Source: Escherichia coli (GTDB taxonomy: Bacteria; Pseudomonadota; Gammaproteobacteria; Enterobacterales; Enterobacteriaceae). From it: a stretch of 64,000 bases of DNA. Of this stretch, positions 80-64,000 are shown in pieces; positions within the stretch are counted from its first letter, which is position 1, and every line of letters begins with the position of its first letter. The DNA is taken from assembly GCF_013315695.1 (NCBI RefSeq), contig NZ_CP054353.1; one strand, given 5' to 3'. Made by a program: the position numbers and the translations under genes. The notes beneath the pieces were generated by a model. The model was not told where the DNA came from. It searched no databases and worked only from the letters and a program-made list of their open reading frames with translations.

Positions 80-355
80 GTGGCTTCTGTTTCTATCAGC
101 TGTCCCTCCTGTTCAGCTACTGACGGGGTGGTGCGTAACGGCAAAAGCACCGCCGGACATCAGCGCTATCTCTGCTCTCACTGCCGTAAAACATGGCAAC
201 TGCAGTTCACTTACACCGCTTCTCAACCCGGTACGCACCAGAAAATCATTGATATGGCCATGAATGGCGTTGGATGCCGGGCAACAGCCCGCATTATGGG
301 CGTTGGCCTCAACACGATTTTACGTCACTTAAAAAACTCAGGCCGCAGTCGGTAA
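80..355 (+). CDS. insA: IS1 protein InsA (91 aa)
   Basis: ORF track 91 aa [16 protein letters not shown]...; recognised InsA sequence. Confidence 0.9.
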
Positions 356-777
356 CCTCGCGCATACAGCCGGGCAGTGACGTCATCGTCTGCGCGGAAA
401 TGGACGAACAGTGGGGCTATGTCGGGGCTAAATCGCGCCAGCGCTGGCTGTTTTACGCGTATGACAGGCTCCGGAAGACGGTTGTTGCGCACGTATTCGG
501 TGAACGCACTATGGCGACGCTGGGGCGTCTTATGAGCCTGCTGTCACCCTTTGACGTGGTGATATGGATGACGGATGGCTGGCCGCTGTATGAATCCCGC
601 CTGAAGGGAAAGCTGCACGTAATCAGCAAGCGATATACGCAGCGAATTGAGCGGCATAACCTGAATCTGAGGCAGCACCTGGCACGGCTGGGACGGAAGT
701 CGCTGTCGTTCTCAAAATCGGTGGAGCTGCATGACAAAGTCATCGGGCATTATCTGAACATAAAACACTATCAATAA
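274..777 (+). CDS. insB: IS1 InsB reading frame (167 aa); transposase is made as InsAB by -1 frameshift
   Basis: ORF track 167 aa [16 protein letters not shown]...; overlaps insA 3' end as in IS1. Confidence 0.9.
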
Positions 778-2484: not shown

Positions 2485-3279
2485 TTATTGACCATTGTCG
2501 CCTTCGCGGGTTAGCCACCAGGCTCCCAGGATCGGCAAGGTTGTTACCAACATAACCAGCAGTGCCACGACGTTGGTTACCGGTACATCACGTGGTCGCC
2601 CAAGCTGATTGAGTAACCACAACGGTAACGTTCGTTCATGACCTGCCGTAAAAGTCGTAACGATGATTTCATCGAACGACAAAGCAAACGCCAGCATTCC
2701 TCCTGCCAGTAGCGCCGAACTGAGATTCGGCAACACTACGTAGCGGAAGGTTTGCCAGCCATTGGCCCCAAGATCCATTGACGCCTCAACCAGACTCCAC
2801 GAGGTGCGGCGAAAACGGGCGATGACATTGTTAAACACCACCACTACGCAAAAAGTCGCATGGCCGACCACGATGGTGAAAAATCCCGGCTCCAGATTGA
2901 TGGTTTTAAAGGCGGTTAATAGCGCCAGACCAGTGACAATGCCCGGCAGCGCAATGGGCAGCAGCAGTAACAGCGAAATGGCATTTTTGCCGAAAAAGTC
3001 TCGTCGCCACAGCGCAGCAGCTGCCAGCGTCCCTAACACCAGCGCGATTAATGTCGCCAGCGCTGCCACTTTAAGTGACAGTGTCACGGAATCAAGAATA
3101 TCACTACGCTGTGCTGCCACGCTAAACCAGCGCAGCGTCAGGCCTTGCGGTGGAAAACTAAACGCCGCATCTTCAGTGTTAAATGCATAGGCGGCGATAA
3201 TCAGGATAGGAAAATGTAGGAAAACTACGCCGCCCCAGGCCGCCAGTTTGAGGAAAAACGGTGCGCGTTCAGAGTGCAT
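2485..3279 (-). CDS. ydcV: ABC transporter permease (264 aa)
   Basis: Multi-pass membrane ORF in ydcSTUV operon order. Confidence 0.85.
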
Positions 3280-38652: not shown

Positions 38653-38928
38653 GTGGCTTCTGTTTCTATCAGCTGTCCCTCCTGTTCAGCTACTGACGGG
38701 GTGGTGCGTAACGGCAAAAGCACCGCCGGACATCAGCGCTATCTCTGCTCTCACTGCCGTAAAACATGGCAACTGCAGTTCACTTACACCGCTTCTCAAC
38801 CCGGTACGCACCAGAAAATCATTGATATGGCCATGAATGGCGTTGGATGCCGGGCAACAGCCCGCATTATGGGCGTTGGCCTCAACACGATTTTACGTCA
38901 CTTAAAAAACTCAGGCCGCAGTCGGTAA
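38653..38928 (+). CDS. insA: IS1 InsA
   Basis: Translation identical to copy 1 InsA. Confidence 0.9.
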
Positions 38929-39350
38929 CCTCGCGCATACAGCCGGGCAGTGACGTCATCGTCTGCGCGGAAATGGACGAACAGTGGGGCTATGTCGGGG
39001 CTAAATCGCGCCAGCGCTGGCTGTTTTACGCGTATGACAGGCTCCGGAAGACGGTTGTTGCGCACGTATTCGGTGAACGCACTATGGCGACGCTGGGGCG
39101 TCTTATGAGCCTGCTGTCACCCTTTGACGTGGTGATATGGATGACGGATGGCTGGCCGCTGTATGAATCCCGCCTGAAGGGAAAGCTGCACGTAATCAGC
39201 AAGCGATATACGCAGCGAATTGAGCGGCATAACCTGAATCTGAGGCAGCACCTGGCACGGCTGGGACGGAAGTCGCTGTCGTTCTCAAAATCGGTGGAGC
39301 TGCATGACAAAGTCATCGGGCATTATCTGAACATAAAACACTATCAATAA
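38847..39350 (+). CDS. insB: IS1 InsB reading frame
   Basis: Translation identical to copy 1 InsB. Confidence 0.9.
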
Positions 39351-48838: not shown

Positions 48839-49114
48839 GTGGCTTCTGTTTCTATCAGCTGTCCCTCCTGTTCAGCTACTGACGGGGTGGTGCGTAACGG
48901 CAAAAGCACCGCCGGACATCAGCGCTATCTCTGCTCTCACTGCCGTAAAACATGGCAACTGCAGTTCACTTACACCGCTTCTCAACCCGGTACGCACCAG
49001 AAAATCATTGATATGGCCATGAATGGCGTTGGATGCCGGGCAACAGCCCGCATTATGGGCGTTGGCCTCAACACGATTTTACGTCACTTAAAAAACTCAG
49101 GCCGCAGTCGGTAA
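48839..49114 (+). CDS. insA: IS1 InsA
   Basis: Translation identical to copy 1 InsA. Confidence 0.9.
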
Positions 49115-49536
49115 CCTCGCGCATACAGCCGGGCAGTGACGTCATCGTCTGCGCGGAAATGGACGAACAGTGGGGCTATGTCGGGGCTAAATCGCGCCAG
49201 CGCTGGCTGTTTTACGCGTATGACAGGCTCCGGAAGACGGTTGTTGCGCACGTATTCGGTGAACGCACTATGGCGACGCTGGGGCGTCTTATGAGCCTGC
49301 TGTCACCCTTTGACGTGGTGATATGGATGACGGATGGCTGGCCGCTGTATGAATCCCGCCTGAAGGGAAAGCTGCACGTAATCAGCAAGCGATATACGCA
49401 GCGAATTGAGCGGCATAACCTGAATCTGAGGCAGCACCTGGCACGGCTGGGACGGAAGTCGCTGTCGTTCTCAAAATCGGTGGAGCTGCATGACAAAGTC
49501 ATCGGGCATTATCTGAACATAAAACACTATCAATAA
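49033..49536 (+). CDS. insB: IS1 InsB reading frame
   Basis: Translation identical to copy 1 InsB. Confidence 0.9.
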
Positions 49537-49551
49537 GTTGGAGTCATTACC

Positions 49552-50357
49552 TCGATTACGGACGTAATTATGGCGTAATGTACGACATCGAAGGCTGGAC
49601 CGATATGCTGCCTGAATTTGGCGGTGACTCTTATACCAATGCAGACAACTTTATGACTGGTCGTGCCAACGGCGTCGCGACTTATCGTAATACTGATTTC
49701 TTCGGTCTGGTAAATGGTCTGAACTTCGCAGTGCAGTATCAAGGTAACAACGAAGGTGCCAGTAATGGTCAGGAAGGCACCAACAACGGACGTGATGTTC
49801 GCCATGAAAACGGTGACGGCTGGGGTCTTTCCACAACATATGATTTAGGCATGGGCTTTAGCGCTGGTGCGGCATACACCTCATCTGACCGCACCAATGA
49901 CCAGGTTAACCATACTGCGGCAGGTGGTGATAAAGCAGACGCGTGGACTGCTGGGCTAAAATACGATGCTAACAATATTTACCTGGCAACCATGTATTCA
50001 GAAACACGTAACATGACCCCGTTTGGCGACAGCGATTATGCAGTTGCGAACAAAACCCAGAACTTTGAAGTTACTGCACAGTACCAGTTTGATTTTGGTC
50101 TGCGTCCGGCAGTCTCTTTCCTGATGTCTAAAGGCCGTGACCTTCACGCTGCCGGTGGTGCAGACAACCCGGCAGGTGTTGATGATAAAGATCTGGTTAA
50201 ATACGCCGATGTTGGCGCGACTTACTATTTCAACAAAAATATGTCCACCTACGTTGACTATAAAATCAACCTGTTGGATGAAGATGACAGCTTCTACGCT
50301 GCCAACGGCATCTCTACCGATGATATTGTCGCTTTAGGTCTGGTTTATCAGTTCTAA
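49552..50357 (+). pseudogene. ompN: 3' portion of outer membrane porin gene truncated by IS1; ompN by synteny
   Basis: Frame open from the IS1 junction (..[15 protein letters not shown]..) to a porin-type C terminus LGLVYQF; N-terminal ~110 codons and promoter missing. Confidence 0.75.
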
Positions 50358-50416: not shown

Positions 50417-50932
<516 letters not shown>

Positions 50933-50939
50933 CACTAAC

Positions 50940-50964
50940 GCCCGCACATTGCTGCGGGCTTTTT
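50940..50964 (+). terminator. Rho-independent terminator after uspF
   Basis: GCCCGCA CATTGC TGCGGGC TTTTT. Confidence 0.65.
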
Positions 50965-51421
50965 GATTCATTTCGCAAATGTGCTGACATTTTCCCCTCT
51001 AATCCGTACCATACACGCCACAGTTTTTATATCAGATTTCTTATGCTGGGCGTTCCGGCATGACGCATACTCTTCTGATGCCATATAACGAATTGAGTCG
51101 CTTTTAAATGTCGCAAAATCAAGAAATTAGTAAGAAAGAACAATACAACCTGAACAAGTAAGGGCAAAAATCACAACTCTCTGACTCATAAGTATTTTAC
51201 TTATTTTTCAATGTGTTAAATATCATCAGCGACAACAATAAGCTACGATAACCCACTCTTTTTTTGCCCCTTTTTTGCCCCTTTTGCAGCGCTTTGCCCC
51301 ATTTTTGCCATCAACAATTTTCCTCATCAAGTCATTTCAAAGCCTAATAGGTGCCCTACTTTTTTCCTCAGTACCACGTCGCCAGCAGGAAACAACCTAA
51401 TCCCGGTTCGGATCTAAAATT

Positions 51422-51440
51422 GCTAATGATAATCATTTTC
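51422..51440 (+). promoter_or_regulatory. Fur box upstream of sitA
   Basis: GCTAATGATAATCATTTTC versus consensus GATAATGATAATCATTATC. Confidence 0.75.
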
Positions 51441-51462
51441 ATTTTGTATTGCTTATGCTATA

Positions 51463-51484
51463 AAACATAGCCGTTGCTATGTTT
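51463..51484 (+). promoter_or_regulatory. MntR operator upstream of sitA
   Basis: Perfect palindrome AAACATAGC CGTT GCTATGTTT, matching the MntR box form. Confidence 0.7.
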
Positions 51485-51516
51485 GTTCTAATTTTGCTCA
51501 CTATAGGTACTAAATT

Positions 51517-52431
51517 ATGTACTCAATAAAAAAAGTAACCATGCTCTTGGGGTGCCTCGCCCTCACCTGCTCGATCGCATTTCAGGCGAGTGCAACTGAA
51601 AAATTCAAGGTCATTACAACATTTACCATCATCGCAGATATGGCCAAAAACGTGGCTGGAGATGCTGCAGAAGTCTCATCCATAACCAAGCCCGGTGCAG
51701 AAATTCATGAGTATCAGCCTACCCCTGGCGATATTAAACGTGCGCAGGAGGCACAACTGATTCTCGCCAATGGTATGAATCTGGAATTGTGGTTCCAACG
51801 CTTTTACCAGCATCTTAATGGGGTTCCAGAAGTAATTGTCTCTTCGGGTGTGACGCCAGTAGGGATCACTGAAGGCCCCTATGAGGGCAAACCTAACCCC
51901 CATGCCTGGATGTCGCCAGATAATGCTCTGATTTACGTCGATAATATTCGTGATGCGTTGATAAAATACGATCCGGCAAATGCACAAACCTACCAACGTA
52001 ATGCCGATACTTATAAAGCCAAGATTACCCAAACCCTTGCCCCCCTGCGTAAGCAGATTGCTGAACTCCCTGAGAATCAGCGATGGATGGTCACCAGTGA
52101 AGGGGCTTTTTCTTATCTCGCACGCGATTTGGGGCTAAAAGAGCTTTATCTGTGGCCGATTAATGCCGATCAACAAGGCACGCCGCAGCAGGTACGTAAG
52201 GTTGTTGATATGGTGAAGAAAAATCATATCCCGGCAGTCTTTAGCGAGAGTACGATTTCCGATAAACCAGCGCGTCAGGTTGCGCGTGAAACCGGCGCGC
52301 ACTACGGCGGTGTACTCTATGTCGATTCCCTGAGCACAGAAAACGGCCCGGTACCTACGTATATCGACCTTCTGAAGGTTACTACCAGTACGCTGGTACA
52401 GGGAATTAAAGCCGGGAAAAGGGAGAAATAA
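51517..52431 (+). CDS. sitA: Periplasmic Mn/Fe-binding protein of Sit ABC transporter (304 aa)
   Basis: Signal peptide plus metal-binding lipoprotein-9-like sequence; first gene of a four-gene transporter operon. Confidence 0.85.
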
Positions 52432-53258
52432 TGATGCAATCTGCGGGCATTGTCGTTAATGATGTTACTGTCACCTGGCGTAACGGGCACACAGCACTGC
52501 GCGATGCATCCTTCACAGTACCAAGTGGATCTATTGCCGCTCTGGTTGGGGTAAACGGTTCCGGAAAATCGACGTTGTTTAAAGCGATTATGGGATTTGT
52601 GCGTCTGACCAGCGGAAAGATATCTGTTCTGGGTATTCCCACGCGACAGGCGCTACAGAAAAACCTGGTTGCCTACGTCCCTCAGTCAGAAGAGGTTGAC
52701 TGGTCATTTCCTGTACTAGTGGAAGATGTGGTGATGATGGGCCGCTATGGGCACATGGGTATGTTGCGTATAGCCAAAAAGAGGGATCGTCAGATTGTCA
52801 CCGATGCGCTGGAACGTGTCGATATGGTGGATTTTCGCCATCGACAAATCGGCGAGCTTTCCGGTGGACAAAAGAAACGCGTCTTTCTGGCGAGAGCGAT
52901 TGCACAGCAGGGTGATGTGATCCTGCTGGATGAACCTTTTACCGGCGTTGATGTGAAAACCGAAGCGAAAATCATCAGCCTGTTGAGGGAGTTACGCGCG
53001 GAAGGCAAGACGATGCTTGTCTCAACGCACAATCTCGGCTCAGTCACGACATTTTGCGATTATACGGTCATGGTCAAAGGCACCGTCCTGGCAAGCGGGC
53101 CGACAGACACCACTTTTACAGCCGAGAACCTGGAGCTGGCTTTTAGCGGCGTACTGCGCCATGTCACACTTAACGCCTCGGAAGAAAGCATTATTACTGA
53201 CGATGAACACCCTTTTGTGGCACATCGACCGTCAGCGGTGCAGAGGGAAGCAAGATGA
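52431..53258 (+). CDS. sitB: Sit transporter ATP-binding protein (275 aa)
   Basis: Walker [10 protein letters not shown], signature LSGGQKKR, Walker B ILLDEP. Confidence 0.85.
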
Positions 53259-54112
53259 ACGTGCTACTGGAACCCTTCAGCTATGAATATATGCTCAATG
53301 CGATGTGGGTCTCGGCGATGGTCGGCGGTCTCTGCGCTTTCCTGTCATGCTATCTGATGCTAAAAGGCTGGTCGCTGATTGGCGATGCGCTGTCGCACTC
53401 TATTGTCCCGGGTGTTGCGGGGGCATATATGCTGGGGCTTCCGTTTTCTCTGGGAGCCTTCTTTTCCGGCGGACTGGCAGCGGGCAGCATGCTGTTTCTT
53501 AACCAACGCACTCGCTTAAAAGAAGATGCCATCATCGGCCTGATCTTCTCCTCCTTTTTTGGCCTGGGGCTGTTTATGGTGTCATTGAACCCGACATCCG
53601 TGAACATTCAGACCATCGTCCTAGGCAATATTCTGGCAATCGATCCGGCGGATATCCTGCAACTCACTATCATTGGCATTCTCTCGATCATCGTGCTTTT
53701 TTTCAAATGGAAAGATCTTATGGTGACCTTTTTCGACGAGAATCACGCCCGTGCTATTGGATTGCATCCGGGCAGATTAAAAATCCTCTTCTTCACCCTG
53801 CTGTCGGTTTCGACCGTTGCGGCGCTGCAAACGGTTGGTGCCTTTCTGGTGATCTGTCTGGTGGTGACTCCCGGTGCAACAGCATGGTTGTTAACCGATC
53901 GTTTTCCCCGCCTGCTCATAATTGCTGTAACTATTGGCAGTGTAACCAGTTTCCTCGGCGCGTGGGTCAGTTACTTTCTGGACGGCGCGACAGGTGGAAT
54001 CATCGTGGTGGCGCAGACACTGCTGTTTCTTTTAGCATTTGTATTTGCGCCCACCCATGGGCTTTTGGCAAATCGTCGGCGTGCGCATAAAGCGCTGGAG
54101 GATCGCTCATGA
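53255..54112 (+). CDS. sitC: Sit transporter permease (285 aa)
   Basis: Multi-pass membrane ORF overlapping sitB end. Confidence 0.85.
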
Positions 54113-54966
54113 TGGCATTATTACTGGAGCCACTGCAGTTCACCTTTATGAGTCACGCACTGCTGATTTCACTGGTAGTTTCCATACCCTGTGCGCTGCT
54201 GTCGGTCTTTCTGGTCCTGAAAGGTTGGGCACTGATGGGTGACGCGATGAGTCATGCGGTTTTTCCTGGCATCGTGCTTGCCTGGATTCTGGGGTTACCT
54301 CTGGCTACAGGGGCATTTATCGCCGGAGTATTCTGCGCGGTGGCGACGGGATACCTGAAAGACAACAGCCGAATCAAGCAAGATACAGTGATGGGGATTG
54401 TTTTTTCTGGCATGTTTGCCGCAGGTCTGATCTTGTATATTGCAGTCAAACCAGACATACATCTTGACCATATTCTTTTCGGCGACATGCTCGGGGTAAC
54501 CATCGGCGATATAATCCAGACGATGATTATTGCCGGGCTGGTTACACTTGTTATTAGCGTAAAATGGCGGGATTTTTTGCTGTTCAGCTTTGATTATCAA
54601 CAGGCGCAGGTAAGCGGTTTGCATACGCGATGGCTGCATTATGGGCTGCTGTGCATGGTTTCCCTGACCATTGTGGCGACGCTGAAAGCAGTAGGTATCA
54701 TTCTCTCCATTTCTCTGCTCATTGCGCCTGGCGCCATTGCGGTACTCCTGACACAACGCTTTCATATTGCACTCCTACTGGCGACTGGCATATCGGTAAT
54801 AGTCTCAATGACTGGTGTTTGGCTGTCCTTTTTTATCGACAGCGCACCCGCTCCGACGATTGTCGTCTTATTCGCGGTTGTGTTCATCATGACGTTTACC
54901 GTTATCAGTTTCAACGCACGCACAAAGGGAAACGCTCATAGACAGGATCTGTTATCCCCCAATTAG
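54109..54966 (+). CDS. sitD: Sit transporter permease (285 aa)
   Basis: Multi-pass membrane ORF overlapping sitC end. Confidence 0.85.
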   Translation: MMALLLEPLQFTFMSHALLISLVVSIPCALLSVFLVLKGWALMGDAMSHAVFPGIVLAWILGLPLATGAFIAGVFCAVATGYLKDNSRIKQDTVMGIVFSGMFAAGLILYIAVKPDIHLDHILFGDMLGVTIGDIIQTMIIAGLVTLVISVKWRDFLLFSFDYQQAQVSGLHTRWLHYGLLCMVSLTIVATLKAVGIILSISLLIAPGAIAVLLTQRFHIALLLATGISVIVSMTGVWLSFFIDSAPAPTIVVLFAVVFIMTFTVISFNARTKGNAHRQDLLSPN

Positions 54967-57148: not shown

Positions 57149-57652
57149 TTATTGATAGTGTTTTATGTTCAGATAATGCCCGATGACTTTGTCATGCAGC
57201 TCCACCGATTTTGAGAACGACAGCGACTTCCGTCCCAGCCGTGCCAGGTGCTGCCTCAGATTCAGGTTATGCCGCTCAATTCGCTGCGTATATCGCTTGC
57301 TGATTACGTGCAGCTTTCCCTTCAGGCGGGATTCATACAGCGGCCAGCCATCCGTCATCCATATCACCACGTCAAAGGGTGACAGCAGGCTCATAAGACG
57401 CCCCAGCGTCGCCATAGTGCGTTCACCGAATACGTGCGCAACAACCGTCTTCCGGAGCCTGTCATACGCGTAAAACAGCCAGCGCTGGCGCGATTTAGCC
57501 CCGACATAGCCCCACTGTTCGTCCATTTCCGCGCAGACGATGACGTCACTGCCCGGCTGTATGCGCGAGGTTACCGACTGCGGCCTGAGTTTTTTAAGTG
57601 ACGTAAAATCGTGTTGAGGCCAACGCCCATAATGCGGGCTGTTGCCCGGCAT
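57149..57652 (-). CDS. insB: IS1 InsB reading frame
   Basis: Translation identical to copy 1 InsB. Confidence 0.9.
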
Positions 57653-58070: not shown

Positions 58071-58226
58071 ATGCAAAAAATCGACCTCGGCAACAACGAA
58101 TCCCTGGTGTGCGGCGTGTTCCCCAACCAGGATGGAACGTTCACTGCCATGACGTATACCAAAAGCAAAACATTTAAAACCGAAACTGGTGCGCGCCGAT
58201 GGTTGGAGAAGCACACAGTAAGCTAA
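58071..58226 (+). CDS. ydaF: Rac prophage small protein, YdaF-like (51 aa)
   Basis: Hand-translated MQKIDLGNNESLVCGVFPNQDGTFTAMTYTKSKTFKTETGARRWLEKHTVS. Confidence 0.5.
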   Translation: MQKIDLGNNESLVCGVFPNQDGTFTAMTYTKSKTFKTETGARRWLEKHTVS

Positions 58227-58711
58227 CGATTAAAACGTCTACTCCTGCTGTTCCAGAATAACTTCATAAAATGGGAGTATTTTTCGGTGACGAGATAATA
58301 AGAACAGTTTGCGCTATCACTCTGATGTTGAATGATGCCCTTCCGTTCTAATTTTTTCATAACCGGGTTACGGCAAGGAGAAGTGATAATAAGATTTCCT
58401 GTTTTAAGGAAATCTTTAAATACAGCGATTTCTTTCTCAGATAAACGAAGCAATACTCGTTGCTCTGGTAGTAATGAATAATGCTTTTGAATATGTGCTC
58501 GCAATCTTGAGAAGGAAATGGCGACCACGAAAGAAAAGGCAAAAACGATAATCTGAAAGAGCCAAGGTATTTCAGTATAAGCATTGAATGCGACAGTAAA
58601 CTCTTTCGGTATCAGCCAGAGAGTGAGACCAAAAATGATAATCGTATACATAAGTCTTTCGAGTGGCTCGTTAGCAAAAAGTTTCAATAATGGAGTAGAT
58701 ACATCCAACAT
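58223..58711 (-). CDS. sieB: Superinfection exclusion protein B, Rac prophage (162 aa)
   Basis: Start set at MLDVSTPLLKLFANEPLERLMYTIIIFGL within longer track ORF. Confidence 0.8.
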   Translation of the reverse strand: MLDVSTPLLKLFANEPLERLMYTIIIFGLTLWLIPKEFTVAFNAYTEIPWLFQIIVFAFSFVVAISFSRLRAHIQKHYSLLPEQRVLLRLSEKEIAVFKDFLKTGNLIITSPCRNPVMKKLERKGIIQHQSDSANCSYYLVTEKYSHFMKLFWNSRSRRFNR

Positions 58712-59151
58712 ATCAATAACTCTCAACTGTAAGGGTATTGAAATGTTAACACAAGCTCTCGCTGTAGGGGTATAGCCGAGACCACCGAAGCCCGGAGGTG
58801 GTGAAATAAAACCGGGCACAACACGAAGGCGCATTTCCGATATCCATAAAGAGTCGGTCTTGTCTGTTAAATTTAAATGGTGGGAGTGCGCCTCCGGTTG
58901 TAAATAACGACATTGCTGTGTGTAGTCCTGGCGGCATCAGTTTTTTCTTGAAGTTCGGCTGATGTCCGCCCTTTTTTAAGTGAATTTTGTGATGCGGTGA
59001 ATGCGGCTAAGCGCACGTGGCACAGTTAAAAGTCATGTTAGTCCTTATTGGTTTGGGTGGGAAAGCCGACTGTAATTGTTAACTGGTTGCAGTCACCTGG
59101 AGGCACCAGGCACCGCATCAACAAAGTTCATTTGTAAAAATGGAGATAATT

Positions 59152-59994: not shown

Positions 59995-62595
59995 ATGAGC
60001 ACAAAACCACTCTTCCTGTTACGGAAAGCGAAAAAATCATCCGGTGAACCTGACGTCGTCCTGTGGGCAAGCAACGATTTTGAATCGACCTGTGCCACTC
60101 TGGACTACCTGATCGTTAAGTCAGGTAAAAAACTGAGCAGCTATTTTAAAGCTGTTGCCACGAATTTTCCTGTCGTTAATGACCTGCCCGCTGAAGGTGA
60201 GATCGATTTTACCTGGAGTGAACGCTATCAACTCAGCAAAGACTCCATGACATGGGAACTAAAACCGGGAGCAGCACCAGACAACGCTCACTATCAAGGC
60301 AATACCAACGTCAACGGCGAAGACATGACTGAGATTGAGGAGAATATGCTACTCCCAATTTCTGGCCAGGAACTGCCCATTCGTTGGCTTGCTCAACACG
60401 GCAGCGAAAAACCGGTAACGCACGTTTCACGCGACGGACTCCAGGCATTACACATTGCTCGGGCTGAAGAACTACCGGCTGTTACTGCCCTGGCTGTTTC
60501 CCACAAAACCAGCCTGCTCGACCCGCTGGAAATTCGCGAACTCCACAAACTGGTTCGTGACACTGACAAAGTTTTCCCTAATCCTGGTAATTCAAACCTG
60601 GGACTGATAACTGCTTTTTTCGAAGCATACCTGAACGCTGACTACACCGATCGAGGACTGCTGACAAAAGAGTGGATGAAGGGTAATCGTGTTTCACACA
60701 TCACTCGCACGGCTTCCGGTGCTAATGCTGGCGGCGGAAACCTCACCGATCGCGGCGAAGGTTTCGTACACGATCTGACGTCACTGGCGCGCGACGTAGC
60801 CACTGGCGTACTGGCCCGTTCAATGGATCTGGACATCTATAACCTTCATCCGGCACACGCTAAACGCATTGAGGAAATTATCGCTGAAAATAAACCGCCC
60901 TTTTCTGTTTTCCGCGACAAATTCATCACCATGCCTGGCGGGCTGGATTATTCCCGCGCCATCGTGGTTGCGTCCGTAAAAGAAGCACCAATTGGGATCG
61001 AGGTCATCCCCGCGCACGTCACTGAATATCTGAACAAAGTACTGACTGAAACCGATCATGCCAACCCTGATCCGGAAATCGTGGATATTGCCTGCGGTCG
61101 CTCCTCTGCCCCGATGCCGCAGCGAGTAACAGAAGAAGGAAAACAGGATGATGAAGAAAAACCGCAACCATCTGGAACAACGGCAGTTGAACAGGGAGAG
61201 GCTGAAACAATGGAACCGGACGCAACTGAACATCATCAGGACACGCAGCCGCTGGATGCTCAGTCACAGGTAAATTCTATTGATGCGAAATATCAGGAAC
61301 TGCGGGCAGAACTCCATGAAGCCCGGAAAAACATTCCATCAAAAGATCCTGTCGATGCCGATAAATTGCTTGCTGCATCACGTGGTGAATTTGTTGACGG
61401 AATTAGCGACCCGAACGATCCGAAATGGGTAAAGGGGATCCAGACTCGCGATTGTGTGTACCAGAACCAGCCAGAAACGGAAAAAACCAGCCCGGATATG
61501 AATCAACCTGAGCCAGTAGTGCAACAGGAACCGGAAATAGCCTGCAATGCCTGCGGCCAGACTGGCGGGGATAACTGCCCTGACTGTGGTGCGGTGATGG
61601 GCGACGCAACATACCAGGAAACATTCGATGAAGAGAGTCAGGTTGAAGCTAAGGAAAATGATCCGGAGGAAATGGAAGGCGCTGAACATCCGCACAATGA
61701 GAATGCTGGCAGCGATCCGCATCGCGATTGCAGTGATGAAACTGGCGAAGTCGCAGATCCCGTAATCGTAGAAGACATAGAGCCAGGTATTTATTACGGA
61801 ATTTCGAATGAGAATTACCACGCGGGTCCCGGTGTCAGTAAGTCTCAGCTCGATGACATTGCTGATACTCCGGCACTATATTTGTGGCGTAAAAATGCCC
61901 CCGTTGACACCACAAAGACAAAAACGCTCGATTTAGGAACCGCTTTCCACTGCCGGGTACTTGAACCGGAAGAATTCAGTAACCGCTTTATCGTAGCACC
62001 TGAATTTAACCGCCGTACAAACGCCGGAAAAGAAGAAGAGAAAGCGTTTCTGATGGAATGCGCAAGCACAGGAAAAACAGTTATCACTGCGGAAGAAGGC
62101 CGGAAAATTGAACTCATGTATCAAAGCGTTATGGCTTTGCCGCTGGGGCAATGGCTTGTTGAAAGCGCCGGACACGCTGAATCATCAATTTACTGGGAAG
62201 ATCCTGAAACAGGAATTTTGTGTCGGTGCCGTCCGGACAAAATTATCCCTGAATTTCACTGGATCATGGACGTGAAAACTACGGCGGATATTCAACGATT
62301 CAAAACCGCTTATTACGACTACCGCTATCACGTTCAGGATGCATTCTACAGTGACGGTTATGAAGCACAGTTTGGAGTGCAGCCAACTTTCGTTTTTCTG
62401 GTTGCCAGCACAACTATTGAATGCGGACGTTATCCGGTTGAAATTTTCATGATGGGCGAAGAAGCAAAACTGGCAGGTCAACAGGAATATCACCGCAATC
62501 TGCGAACCCTGTCTGACTGCCTGAATACCGATGAATGGCCAGCTATTAAGACATTATCACTGCCCCGCTGGGCTAAGGAATATGCAAATGACTAA
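59995..62595 (+). CDS. recE: Exodeoxyribonuclease VIII (RecE), full-length 866 aa
   Basis: 866-aa ORF with acidic central region and C-terminal nuclease domain; directly followed by overlapping recT. Confidence 0.9.
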
Positions 62596-63397
62596 GCAAC
62601 CACCAATCGCAAAAGCCGATCTGCAAAAAACTCAGGGAAACCGTGCACCAGCAGCAGTTAAAAATAGCGACGTGATTAGTTTTATTAACCAGCCATCAAT
62701 GAAAGAGCAACTGGCAGCAGCTCTTCCACGCCATATGACGGCTGAACGTATGATCCGTATCGCCACCACAGAAATTCGTAAAGTTCCGGCGTTAGGAAAC
62801 TGTGACACTATGAGTTTTGTCAGTGCGATCGTACAGTGTTCACAGCTCGGACTTGAGCCAGGTAGCGCCCTCGGTCATGCATATTTACTGCCTTTTGGTA
62901 ATAAAAACGAAAAGAGCGGTAAAAAGAACGTTCAGCTAATCATTGGCTATCGCGGCATGATTGATCTGGCTCGCCGTTCTGGTCAAATCGCCAGCCTGTC
63001 AGCCCGTGTTGTCCGTGAAGGTGACGAGTTTAGCTTCGAATTTGGCCTTGATGAAAAGTTAATACACCGCCCGGGAGAAAACGAAGATGCCCCGGTTACC
63101 CACGTCTATGCTGTCGCAAGACTGAAAGACGGAGGTACTCAGTTTGAAGTTATGACGCGCAAACAGATTGAGCTGGTGCGCAGCCTGAGTAAAGCTGGTA
63201 ATAACGGGCCGTGGGTAACTCACTGGGAAGAAATGGCAAAGAAAACGGCTATTCGTCGCCTGTTCAAATATCTGCCCGTATCAATTGAGATCCAGCGTGC
63301 AGTATCAATGGATGAAAAGGAACCACTGACAATCGATCCTGCAGATTCCTCTGTATTAACCGGGGAATACAGTGTAATCGATAATTCAGAGGAATAA
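62588..63397 (+). CDS. recT: Single-strand annealing protein RecT (269 aa)
   Basis: Start set at [28 protein letters not shown]; overlaps recE stop (ATGACTAA). Confidence 0.9.
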
Positions 63398-63928: not shown

Positions 63929-64000
63929 ATGGCACAAGTAATCTTTAATGAAGAGTGGATGGTTGAATACGGCCTGATGCTTCGCACTGGTCTGGGGGCC
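63929..64000 (+). CDS. xisR: Rac prophage excisionase-like protein, 5' partial (runs off window end)
   Basis: ATG at 63929: MAQVIFNEEWMVEYGLMLRTGLGA... Confidence 0.5.
   Translation, partial: MAQVIFNEEWMVEYGLMLRTGLGA

Follow-up and report, generated by a model that had tools for sequence, protein, structure and literature searches.

The attachment site attP of phage lambda, whose layout is established knowledge (Landy reviews), is served by a heterobivalent integrase with an N-terminal arm-binding domain and carries a short motif on both of its arms (P1 and P2; P′1–P′3). For the Rac prophage of Escherichia coli K-12, Liu et al. (2015; PMC4632033) defined the core, the change to TtcA and the binding of XisR to a 294-bp fragment, and the term "arm" does not occur in the searched text of that paper. 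Integrases with the domain PF12167 have been classified as the "IntBPP-1 subgroup", with the named members called putative integrases (Smyshlyaev et al. 2021; PMC8138268). The searchable literature, with older subscription papers lying outside it, gave no description of a TGCCCC arm consensus or of arm-type sites in 933W, and on DUF3596/PF12167 it held the classification paper only. For the LF82 prophage Perceval, the sitABCD operon has been called a moron (PMC9928086), and a literature search for a mapped sitA promoter in Shigella gave nothing usable.

Here we analyzed a short repeat tract upstream of sitA in a 64,000-nucleotide stretch of E. coli DNA (assembly GCF_013315695.1, contig NZ_CP054353.1), hereafter called the window. 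An earlier note, made from the sequence alone, had taken the tract for a feature of the sitA promoter. From comparison with related prophages, we consider it likely that the tract instead belongs to the attachment site of a Rac-type prophage in ttcA, where it would form the distal group of arm-type integrase-binding sites on the int-distal (P) arm.

Structure of the repeat tract

The repeat with a period of 11 bp that had been read from the letters was confirmed, both by the letters themselves and by Tandem Repeats Finder. The program returned a perfect array of period 11 at 51260–51285 (2.4 copies, 100% match, score 52, consensus TTTTTTGCCCC) and a looser enclosing array, also of period 11, at 51261–51309 (4.8 copies, 72% match, score 45). 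On direct reading of the letters, the tract occupies 51259–51310, which puts the range of 51258–51309 given in the earlier note one base off at each end: position 51258 is a C, the run of seven Ts begins at 51259, and the last unit, ATTTTTGCCA, ends at 51310. The exact sequence TTTTGCCCC occurs twice in the 64-kb window, both times within the tract.

The three TGCCCC copies and a degenerate TGCCAT (Table 1) have start-to-start spacings of 11, 19, and 11 bp. The degeneracy of this fourth site counts against the arm-site reading. At least four iterations of a T-run followed by GCCCC had been counted in this stretch. The repeats are real, but the third unit, TTTTGCAGCGC, is better read as a spacer between two pairs of sites, since it varies more between lineages than any other unit and is missing from MB50; at the equivalent place, 933W and phi315 have a non-site spacer in an 11/20/11 spacing. 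The GCCCC of pair 1 was invariant or nearly so in 12 Rac-type lineages, and the position and spacing of this pair are homologous to those of the pairs in 933W, phi315, Klebsiella RCIP0098, and Aeromonas pAEv1818. Pair 2 was likewise conserved in the alignment of Rac-type lineages, and it is the only pair kept in pAPEC-O2-ColV. In these alignments, it is the TGCCCC hexamers, paired at an 11-bp spacing, that are conserved, and not the T-run.

Within the window, TGCCCC-N5-TGCCCC with at most one mismatch occurs once, in the tract, against 0.37 occurrences expected. This single-window count is indecisive on its own, and it is the comparison of integrase loci described below that is decisive.

Table 1. 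Positions in the window of the repeat tract, the attachment site, and neighboring features
Feature	Position	Strand	Basis and remarks
ttcA 5′ fragment ("ttcC" remnant of prophage insertion)	51109..51158	+	ATG at 51109, 16 codons, TAA just past the att block
Exact IHF consensus AATCAAGAAATTA	51117..51129	+	Search with WATCAANNNNTTR; IHF binding predicted
26-bp att identity block (core region) AAGAAAGAACAATACAACCTGAACAA	51132..51157	.	Common to both prophage ends; 1 occurrence in the window
Inverted motif-like copy GGGCAAAAA (= TTTTTGCCC on the minus strand)	51162..51170	-	Inverted-repeat search; 4 bp from the att block
Candidate IHF-like site TTTCAATGTGTTA	51206..51218	+	Read from the sequence; 1 mismatch to WATCAANNNNTTR; after a T-rich stretch; putative
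Putative arm-type site pair 1, TTTTTTTGCCCC TTTTTTGCCCC	51259..51281	+	TGCCCC at 51265-51270 and 51276-51281, 11 bp apart
Inter-pair spacer (unit 3 of the earlier note)	51282..51292	+	Variants ACGGCG, ACAGCG, GCAGTG, GCAGCA
Putative arm-type site pair 2, TTTGCCCC ATTTTTGCCAT	51293..51311	+	TGCCCC at 51295-51300, degenerate TGCCAT at 51306-51311
Module boundary: outer end of the conserved att arm, start of sit-associated sequence	51310..51314	.	Rac-type similarity stops here
sitA regulatory region (context, outside the tract)	51421..51484	+	Fur-box-like sequence at ~51421-51445; MntR-type palindrome AAACATAGC-N4-GCTATGTTT at 51463-51484
sitABCD operon, cargo (moron) just inside the int-distal prophage end	51517..54966	+	ORFs; annotated identical locus in E. 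coli 7/2
sieB	58223-58834	-	Pfam SieB
recE	59995-62595		Pfam Exonuc_VIII
recT	62531-63397		Pfam RecT

Location at a prophage end in ttcA

We then placed the tract in its neighborhood. Upstream of it are an IS1 copy, the ompN gene that this IS1 has truncated, and uspF followed by its terminator; the order into the prophage is uspF, the ttcA 5′ fragment, the 26-bp att block, and the tract. In E. coli genomes that have no prophage at this site, the match to the window ends at about 51157, in annotated ttcA. The att block is annotated as attB/attP in phage Rac-SA53, and an identical block lies 76–101 nt past the intR stop codon in K-12; strand exchange takes place somewhere within these 26 bp. Since the block ends at 51157, the DNA from 51158 onward is prophage, and the tract, 107–153 bp from the block, lies inside the prophage end at ttcA. 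Phage 683R6, which we considered as an attP-form Rac-like phage, was rejected because it is in prophage form and followed by ttcA.

The gene order farther in matches that of K-12 Rac (recE-recT-ralR-rcbA-xisR-intR-ttcA). The window thus contains a Rac-like remnant of about 14 kb, with the xis/int/ttcA end expected just past position 64,000; the integrase gene of this prophage is presumed to lie there because recE and recT are ordered as in K-12 Rac.

Between the att block and the tract, two further elements were noted. The inverted motif-like copy next to the block was nearly invariant in the 12 Rac-type lineages, and no equivalent of it was seen in the 933W-type phages examined; it could belong to a core-type site or be coincidental. 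The candidate IHF-like site lies midway between core and tract and was conserved in the alignment of Rac-type lineages.

An explanation at the RNA level was rejected: an Rfam search of 50900–51600 gave no match above threshold, its sole result being a sub-threshold STnc310 match on the uspF terminator (E = 0.56, 19 vs 40 bits). A scan for sigma-70 promoters found nothing convincing in or adjoining the tract, and its sole minus-strand match, at 51219–51191, was at the level of shuffled sequence.

The same motif on both arms of attP and across related integrases

The IntR protein of K-12 Rac has both an N-terminal Arm-DNA-bind_2 domain (PF12167, 91 bits) and a catalytic domain, and all the relatives that we examined have PF12167. 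With this domain combination, IntR is heterobivalent and must have arm-type sites in attP. A PDB sequence search returned no structure covering this arm domain.

To describe attP as a whole, we rebuilt it from the int side of K-12 and the far side of the window, with positions counted from the center of the 26-bp block. Directly after the intR stop codon, K-12 and Rac-SA53 both read TAG-TTGCAAAG-TTTGCCCCC-AA-TTTGCCCC, and TTTGCCCCC-AA-TTTGCCCC directly past the intR stop was also found in pAPEC-O2-ColV. This int-side sequence contains two TGCCCC copies 11 bp apart, in the same orientation as the sites of the tract. The resulting Rac-type geometry has int-side sites at −78 and −67 and far-side sites at +120, +131, +150, and +161. 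The motif is therefore the same on both arms and distinct from the core, the 26-bp block being without TGCCCC. In the reconstructed attP, the int-side arm also has an equivalent, exact IHF consensus, AATCAACAAATTA, 15 bp from the att block and between the int-side pair and the core.

The comparison was extended to relatives whose integrases are 54–74% identical, from Klebsiella, Salmonella, Pectobacterium, Pluralibacter, Yersinia, Serratia, Lelliottia, and Enterobacter, and to phages whose integrases are about 43% identical to IntR (phi315 of the 933W type, mEp460, Klebsiella RCIP0098, and Yersinia YP3). A TGCCC[CT]-N5-TGCCCC pair was present at 12 of 12 integrase loci (43–74% identity) against 0.003 expected in 44.7 kb, the loci being phylogenetically related and hence fewer than 12 separate events. 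At all 12, the pair lies on the int-sense strand and starts between −60 and +10 from the int stop codon. It is present even where the target and its flanks are unrelated to ttcA (Yersinia, Serratia, and Lelliottia), and it is kept both in non-coding DNA (IntR type) and where a C-terminal extension of the int ORF covers it (933W type). As a control, we searched a 49-kb stretch of E. coli 7/2, in which the sole such pair lay at the 3′ end of an integrase gene. The TGCCCC hexamer was invariant in 40 of the 42 sites compiled, and the preceding T-run was not conserved. A scan of IMG/VR with IntR gave 80 loci that were nearly identical, most of them cut off at the int stop codon, and was uninformative for distant footprinting.

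The far arm varies in the number of sites (Table 2): in 933W, phi315, and the Klebsiella and Aeromonas phages, one to three pairs stand across the core at a distance of about 200–210 bp. In 933W, with annotated 7-bp att cores, the int-side pair starts 89 and 78 bp from the core end, and the three pairs of the int-distal end stand at +129/+140, +160/+171, and +191/+202.

Table 2. TGCCCC-type sites on the two arms of attP in Rac-type and related elements
Element	Int side	Far arm
Window / Rac type	Pair 11 bp apart	Four sites, 11/19/11
phi315	Pair 11 bp apart	Four sites (two pairs), 11/20/11
933W	Pair 11 bp apart	Three pairs
Klebsiella RCIP0098	Pair	One pair, 207 bp from the int-side pair
Aeromonas pAEv1818 (35% identity)	GCCCCA pair	One GCCCCA pair, 208 bp from the int-side pair
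phiCTX (31% identity, Pseudomonas)	GTTCCCA pair	GTTCCCA pair

In phiCTX, the GTTCCCA pairs have the same 11-bp spacing and flank a tRNA-like core in the same orientation, so that the layout is kept while the motif is changed. The arm domain is 46–48% identical to IntR across the family, whereas identity in the core-binding domain falls to 23–31%; a conserved arm domain next to a diverged core-binding domain fits a common arm motif combined with different cores. Motif and geometry thus follow the integrase across unrelated cores, and the motif changes where the arm domain has diverged.

Integrase or excisionase as the binding protein

We considered whether the repeats could be sites for XisR, the recombination directionality factor with the domain DUF1233. 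Lambda Xis binds the tandem sites X1, X1.5, and X2 in the P arm, and the tract, whose direct repeats follow one another at helical spacing and also lie in the int-distal arm, would be their analog. A DUF1233 excisionase accompanies every integrase of the family that we examined, and for this reason co-occurrence cannot separate Int from Xis. In an electrophoretic mobility shift assay, His-tagged XisR shifted a 294-bp fragment, AttR, and did not shift a 291-bp fragment, AttM (Liu et al. 2015; PMC4632033). We mapped the primers of that study on K-12, which placed AttR at L001 3103–3396, AttM at L001 3227–3517, and the tract at L001 3328–3379. The bound fragment does include the tract, but the unshifted AttM contains the whole tract as well, together with the rest of the arm (PMC4632033 and our mapping), so the tract is insufficient for XisR binding.

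The motif pair also occurs in the int-proximal arm, where a Xis of the lambda type does not bind. A heterobivalent integrase needs arm sites, and no other repeated motif conserved across the integrase family was found in the loci compared. We do not class the repeats as excisionase sites, on the basis of one published assay whose negative fragment ends at the core edge. That assay, together with the motif on the int-proximal arm, favors Int over XisR as the binder, and we regard XisR sites as an unlikely explanation of the tract.

Relation of the tract to the sit operon

The position of the tract suggests another explanation, namely a cis-element of the sitA promoter such as a bent or UP-like element acting from far upstream, a site for H-NS nucleation, or an array of activator sites. 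The distance of about 110 bp to a Fur-box-like sequence had been given correctly. We take this sequence and the palindrome that follows it to be Fur and MntR boxes on the basis of the consensus sequences for these regulators. Curved AT-rich DNA upstream of promoters can affect transcription, and the T-tracts here are strongly phased, with curvature predicted. H-NS is mentioned as a regulator of Rac excision (Liu et al.; PMC4632033). The arm is carried by 1,528 of 5,426 complete E. coli genomes; most of these 1,528 align over its full length, and in 494 it is contiguous with sitA.

Against a promoter element, the tract proved to be independent of sit. K-12, with a Rac prophage free of sit genes, aligns with the window at 99% between uspF and 51310, where the match stops; its Rac has the tract unchanged and ynaM and ydfK downstream instead of sit. 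Among the 12 Rac-type lineages aligned, the arm is conserved from the core to the last unit, and the lineages diverge from one another immediately beyond, so that similarity among Rac, Rac-SA53, and the window ends exactly at the distal edge of the tract. Conversely, typical ColV-plasmid sit loci match the window only from about 51304, where the last unit survives as a diverged trace, and the chromosomal sit locus of the Nissle type that we compared has nothing resembling the array. The Fur-box-like sequence and the MntR-type palindrome are still conserved in these plasmid and Nissle-type loci. Across relatives, TGCCCC follows integrases, not sit, and the T-run is not conserved.

The tract therefore does not travel with sit from context to context, and its earlier assignment to the sitA promoter was not supported. 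The sit loci compared are not identical in this respect: the array is absent from typical ColV and Nissle-type loci. Judged from these comparisons, the tract belongs to the att module and not to the sit module, and we consider a role as a sitA promoter element improbable. Its position upstream of sitA reflects the place where the cargo was inserted and does not in itself argue for a regulatory role, although the bent array, if bound by protein, might still affect sitA transcription.

Bending and variation in unit number

T-runs of 7, 6, 4, and 5 nt begin at 51259, 51271, 51282, and 51302, and their centers repeat every 10–12 bp. In a parameter-free phasing score, the tract reached 3.88 of 4, the highest value in the window (top 0.02%), with a maximum at a period of 10.5. 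The sequence has the pattern of phased A/T-tracts (at least 3–4 tracts of at least 4 nt at ~10–11 bp). An intrinsic bend is predicted for the tract and is likely; it could help to fold the arm. The bend is not the conserved feature, since relatives use A-rich or mixed spacers. Of the functions that the earlier note had suggested, a DNA-bending array is thus likely as a secondary property, with curvature predicted. The suggestion of a binding-site array stands insofar as the tract is an array of putative sites, but these would serve a prophage integrase at the att site and not sit regulation.

The third suggestion was of a slippage-prone tract that affects promoter spacing. Variants in unit number do exist: PKF8 has 11 bp more, with one extra TTTTTTGCCCC; MB50 has 9 bp less; pAPEC-O2-ColV has 30 bp less, leaving one pair; and 933W has a 31-bp duplication of a pair relative to phi315. 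The tract is too far upstream for an effect on promoter spacing, however; as more than 100 bp separate it from the Fur and MntR boxes, changes in unit number cannot alter the spacing of the core promoter. Indels were seen in 3 of the 12 Rac-type lineages sampled, always as gains or losses of whole sites or pairs, and every Rac-type lineage aligned keeps at least one pair.

These features could also be taken to mean that the tract is curved or slippage-prone filler, a degenerate minisatellite with no specific protein partner, given its period-11 repeats, its top phasing score in the window, and whole-unit indels of +11, −9, and −30 bp. The indels are rare, however, and leave whole sites and pairs intact. 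In addition, it is the T-runs that vary in relatives and the hexamer that does not, and the motif recurs at a fixed place by the int stop codon in unrelated contexts, which makes filler DNA highly improbable.

Finally, there is a negligible chance that the minus strand of the tract codes for a segment of a small Gly/Lys-rich protein. The window has a 34-aa minus-strand ORF at 51226–51330, and PGAP places a "hypothetical protein" CDS across the tract in BL21(DE3), MB50, and PKF8. No such CDS is annotated in K-12 or strain 7/2, however, the peptide is a low-complexity read-through of the repeats, and the length and ends of the ORF differ between strains, with the +11-bp variant shifting the frame. 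We rejected it as coding; the disruption of its frame among otherwise conserved copies argues against it.

Proposed function and implications

The reading of the tract as arm-type integrase sites draws on its location, the motif on both arms, the motif and geometry shared across the family, the motif switch in phiCTX, the arm domain, and the phasing of the T-tracts. We propose that the two TGCCCC pairs, with an 11-bp spacing inside each pair and about 30 bp from one pair to the next, would be bound by the N-terminal arm-binding domain (PF12167) of IntR, while its core-binding and catalytic domains would hold the core. In the attP of the free phage, the matching pair adjoining the int stop codon would stand on the opposite side of the core, about 70–80 bp from it. 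Bends of the IHF type, to which the intrinsic bend of the four phased T-tracts presumably contributes, would fold the arms back into an intasome for integration and excision, for which the sites would be needed. In the window, the site belongs to the prophage end (B-O-P) of the Rac-like remnant of about 14 kb with sitABCD as its cargo.

The attachment site is of an ordinary kind; what we did not find described is the motif of the integrase family. The family-wide rule of TGCCCC pairs is the most useful by-product of this analysis. It offers a testable arm-site consensus for a large integrase family, with pairs at about −80/−70 and at +120 to +170 from the core, and it covers Rac, Qin, Stx phages of the 933W type, and phages of Klebsiella, Yersinia, and Aeromonas, as well as phiCTX with a changed motif. 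Such a consensus could help to delimit the minimal attP for integration vectors and to annotate prophage ends.

For studies of sitABCD regulation in Shigella and E. coli, it matters that a repeat upstream of a promoter is reassigned to a prophage attachment site. Constructs that span 51259–51311 bring in putative integrase sites together with a predicted bend, rather than elements that control sit. In this arrangement, sit is cargo immediately inside the att arm. One ColV plasmid retains a complete attP-form junction, which points to the capture of sit from an excised Rac-like phage.

More speculatively, TGCCCC(A) pairs at 11 bp might be a hitherto undescribed arm-site code of the whole PF12167 (IntBPP-1) family, including Rac, Qin, and Stx phages of the 933W type. 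The number of far-arm pairs (one in pAPEC-O2-ColV, two in Rac and phi315, three in 933W) might then tune integration and excision, and occupancy by Int or the bent array might couple sit expression to the recombination state of the prophage. We think this extension doubtful as it stands.

Comparison with known attachment sites

The tract resembles phased A-tract bent DNA of the kinetoplast type in its four T-tracts of 4–7 nt with a maximum at 10.5 bp. It differs in that the tracts here are spacers between putative protein sites, and that their curvature is predicted and unconserved in relatives.

With lambda attP, the Rac-type site shares a heterobivalent integrase with an N-terminal arm-binding domain and a short motif on both arms. 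Tandem copies about one helical turn apart lie by the 3′ end of int and others 110–160 bp out on the opposite arm; the stretch from the core to the int-side sites contains an IHF consensus, and attP spans about 240 bp. The two differ in the motif, TGCCCC(A) here as opposed to C/AAGTCACTAT in lambda, and in the arm domain, which is PF12167 (IntBPP-1 subgroup) here and of the lambda type there. Unlike in lambda, the sites form strict 11-bp pairs, one to three in the far arm, and are set in phased T-tracts; binding to them is predicted.

With attL and attR of K-12 Rac, the window shares the att site itself, the target in ttcA, and the 26-bp block; the tract in the window is 99% identical to the attR-side arm of K-12. 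Unlike in K-12 Rac, the prophage of the window has sitABCD directly past the arm.

The attachment sites of 933W-like Stx phages and of the Qin type share the PF12167 arm domain, a DUF1233 Xis, and TGCCCC pairs at the 3′ end of int, and those of the 933W/Stx type also have two to three pairs in the int-distal arm at about equal distances. They differ from the Rac type in core and target (a 7-bp core in 933W), in an int-side pair that lies inside the C-terminal extension of the int ORF, and in sites that are followed by A-rich spacers where those of the window are T-rich.

Implied XisR-binding determinant and the ttcA 5′ end

To place AttR, the fragment shifted by XisR, and AttM, the fragment that was not, we mapped onto K-12 the primers that Liu et al. 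2015 (PMC4632033) used for EMSA. AttR contains 124 bp of uspF-ttcC-core DNA that AttM lacks, and this primer mapping implies that the XisR-binding determinant lies within, or straddles, the AttR-only DNA. The placement was unexpected: in contrast to the lambda paradigm, the implied determinant would be on the bacterial/core side and not on the phage arm. On the int side, the phage arm carries its own substitute ttcA 5′ end (MQENQQITKKEQYNLNK... versus native MSQNQEISKKEQYNLNK), and insertion therefore restores an intact but altered ttcA, as reported by Liu et al. 2015 (PMC4632033). An IHF consensus was located inside the mimicked ttcA coding stretch in both the phage and the native versions.

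Coordinates of the features discussed in the window and in comparison sequences
Feature	Sequence	Coordinates	Strand
AttR-only DNA	K-12 (L001)	3103-3226	
AttR-only DNA	window	51034-51157	
ttcA 5′ fragment (ttcC remnant)	window	51109-51158	
ttcA start	K-12 (L005)	4846-4797	
attP-form junction	pAPEC-O2-ColV (L003)	2258-2700	
attP-form junction	DLL7555 (L011)	1-461	
Prophage	E. coli 7/2 (L004/L112)	1791552-1849025	
78-bp segment between tract and Fur box	window	51331-51408	
MntR-type palindrome	window	51463-51484	
Small ORF across tract	window	51226-51330	minus
Small ORF across tract	L012	340-513	
Small ORF across tract	L007	340-504	
Small ORF across tract	L008	369-524	
IS1 copies	window	274-777, 38847-39350, 49033-49536, 57149-57652	
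Remaining ompN porin ORF	window	49578-50357	
GTTCCCA pairs	phiCTX (L113)	int stop +45 to +236	

Att junctions and a possible origin of the sit region

A complete attP-form junction was found 5′ of the plasmid sitA in pAPEC-O2-ColV (NC_007675.1), where the last ~40 nt of intR are followed by the int-side pair (two TGCCCC 11 bp apart), the 26-bp att identity block and the far (int-distal) arm, here with one pair only. This junction upstream of sitA suggests that the plasmid sit region was taken up from an excised (circular) Rac-like phage. E. coli DLL7555 (NZ_CP186931.1) has an attP form within a chromosome: the att block and a far arm bearing the T-run/TGCCCC tract come straight after a truncated integrase pseudogene, an arrangement possibly derived from tandem or rearranged Rac-like prophages. 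Separately, the NC_007675.1 record contains an N-run gap, with vector-like ACTAGTGAATTC just before it.

The prophage of E. coli 7/2 (NZ_CP023820.1) starts with the identical Rac-type arm and sit, and its other end carries Qin-type genes (ydfO, cspI, cspB, relBE, dicB), not intR/ttcA, with a 426-aa mEp460/Qin-type integrase adjoining rspB. It looks like a Rac/Qin hybrid, or the product of an inversion between two prophages. The cores at its two ends do not match, so it should be unable to excise.

A 78-bp segment lying between the tract and the Fur box was ~90% identical to DNA located at ~25.3-26 kb in phage 21, in LF82 phage Perceval and in a number of lambda/Rac recombinant phages. Similar sequence comes after the att arm in K-12 Rac and mEp460 and is present upstream of the Nissle sit locus. 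These relatives suggest that sit entered a common lambdoid 'b-region' segment adjoining attP. The MntR-type palindrome upstream of sitA, AAACATAGC-N4-GCTATGTTT, with a T-rich run after it, was marked as resembling a terminator in the consensus scan; the palindrome almost certainly serves as an operator, not a terminator.

Small ORF call and IS1 copies

PGAP annotated a 'hypothetical protein' overlapping the tract in BL21(DE3), MB50 and PKF8. Reading through the repeats yields its Gly/Lys-rich product, and because frame and ends are not conserved, the small ORF is probably a spurious call and not a real gene. The window also contains four IS1 copies with identical 167-aa InsB-type ORFs, a load typical of Shigella-like genomes; one copy truncates ompN, and another lies inside the prophage remnant.

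Number and motif of proposed arm sites in related phages

The right end of 933W contains three TGCCCC pairs, resulting from a 31-bp tandem duplication (TTTTGCCCCAATAGTGCCCCAAACAACCACA), and phi315 contains two; arm-site copy number therefore differs among Stx phages. In phiCTX (Y13918.1), a tRNA-like core (GGTGAGATTCGAACTCA) has GTTCCCA pairs with 11-bp spacing on either side. As candidate arm-type sites of the phiCTX integrase, these pairs differ in motif from those of the enterobacterial members of the integrase family.
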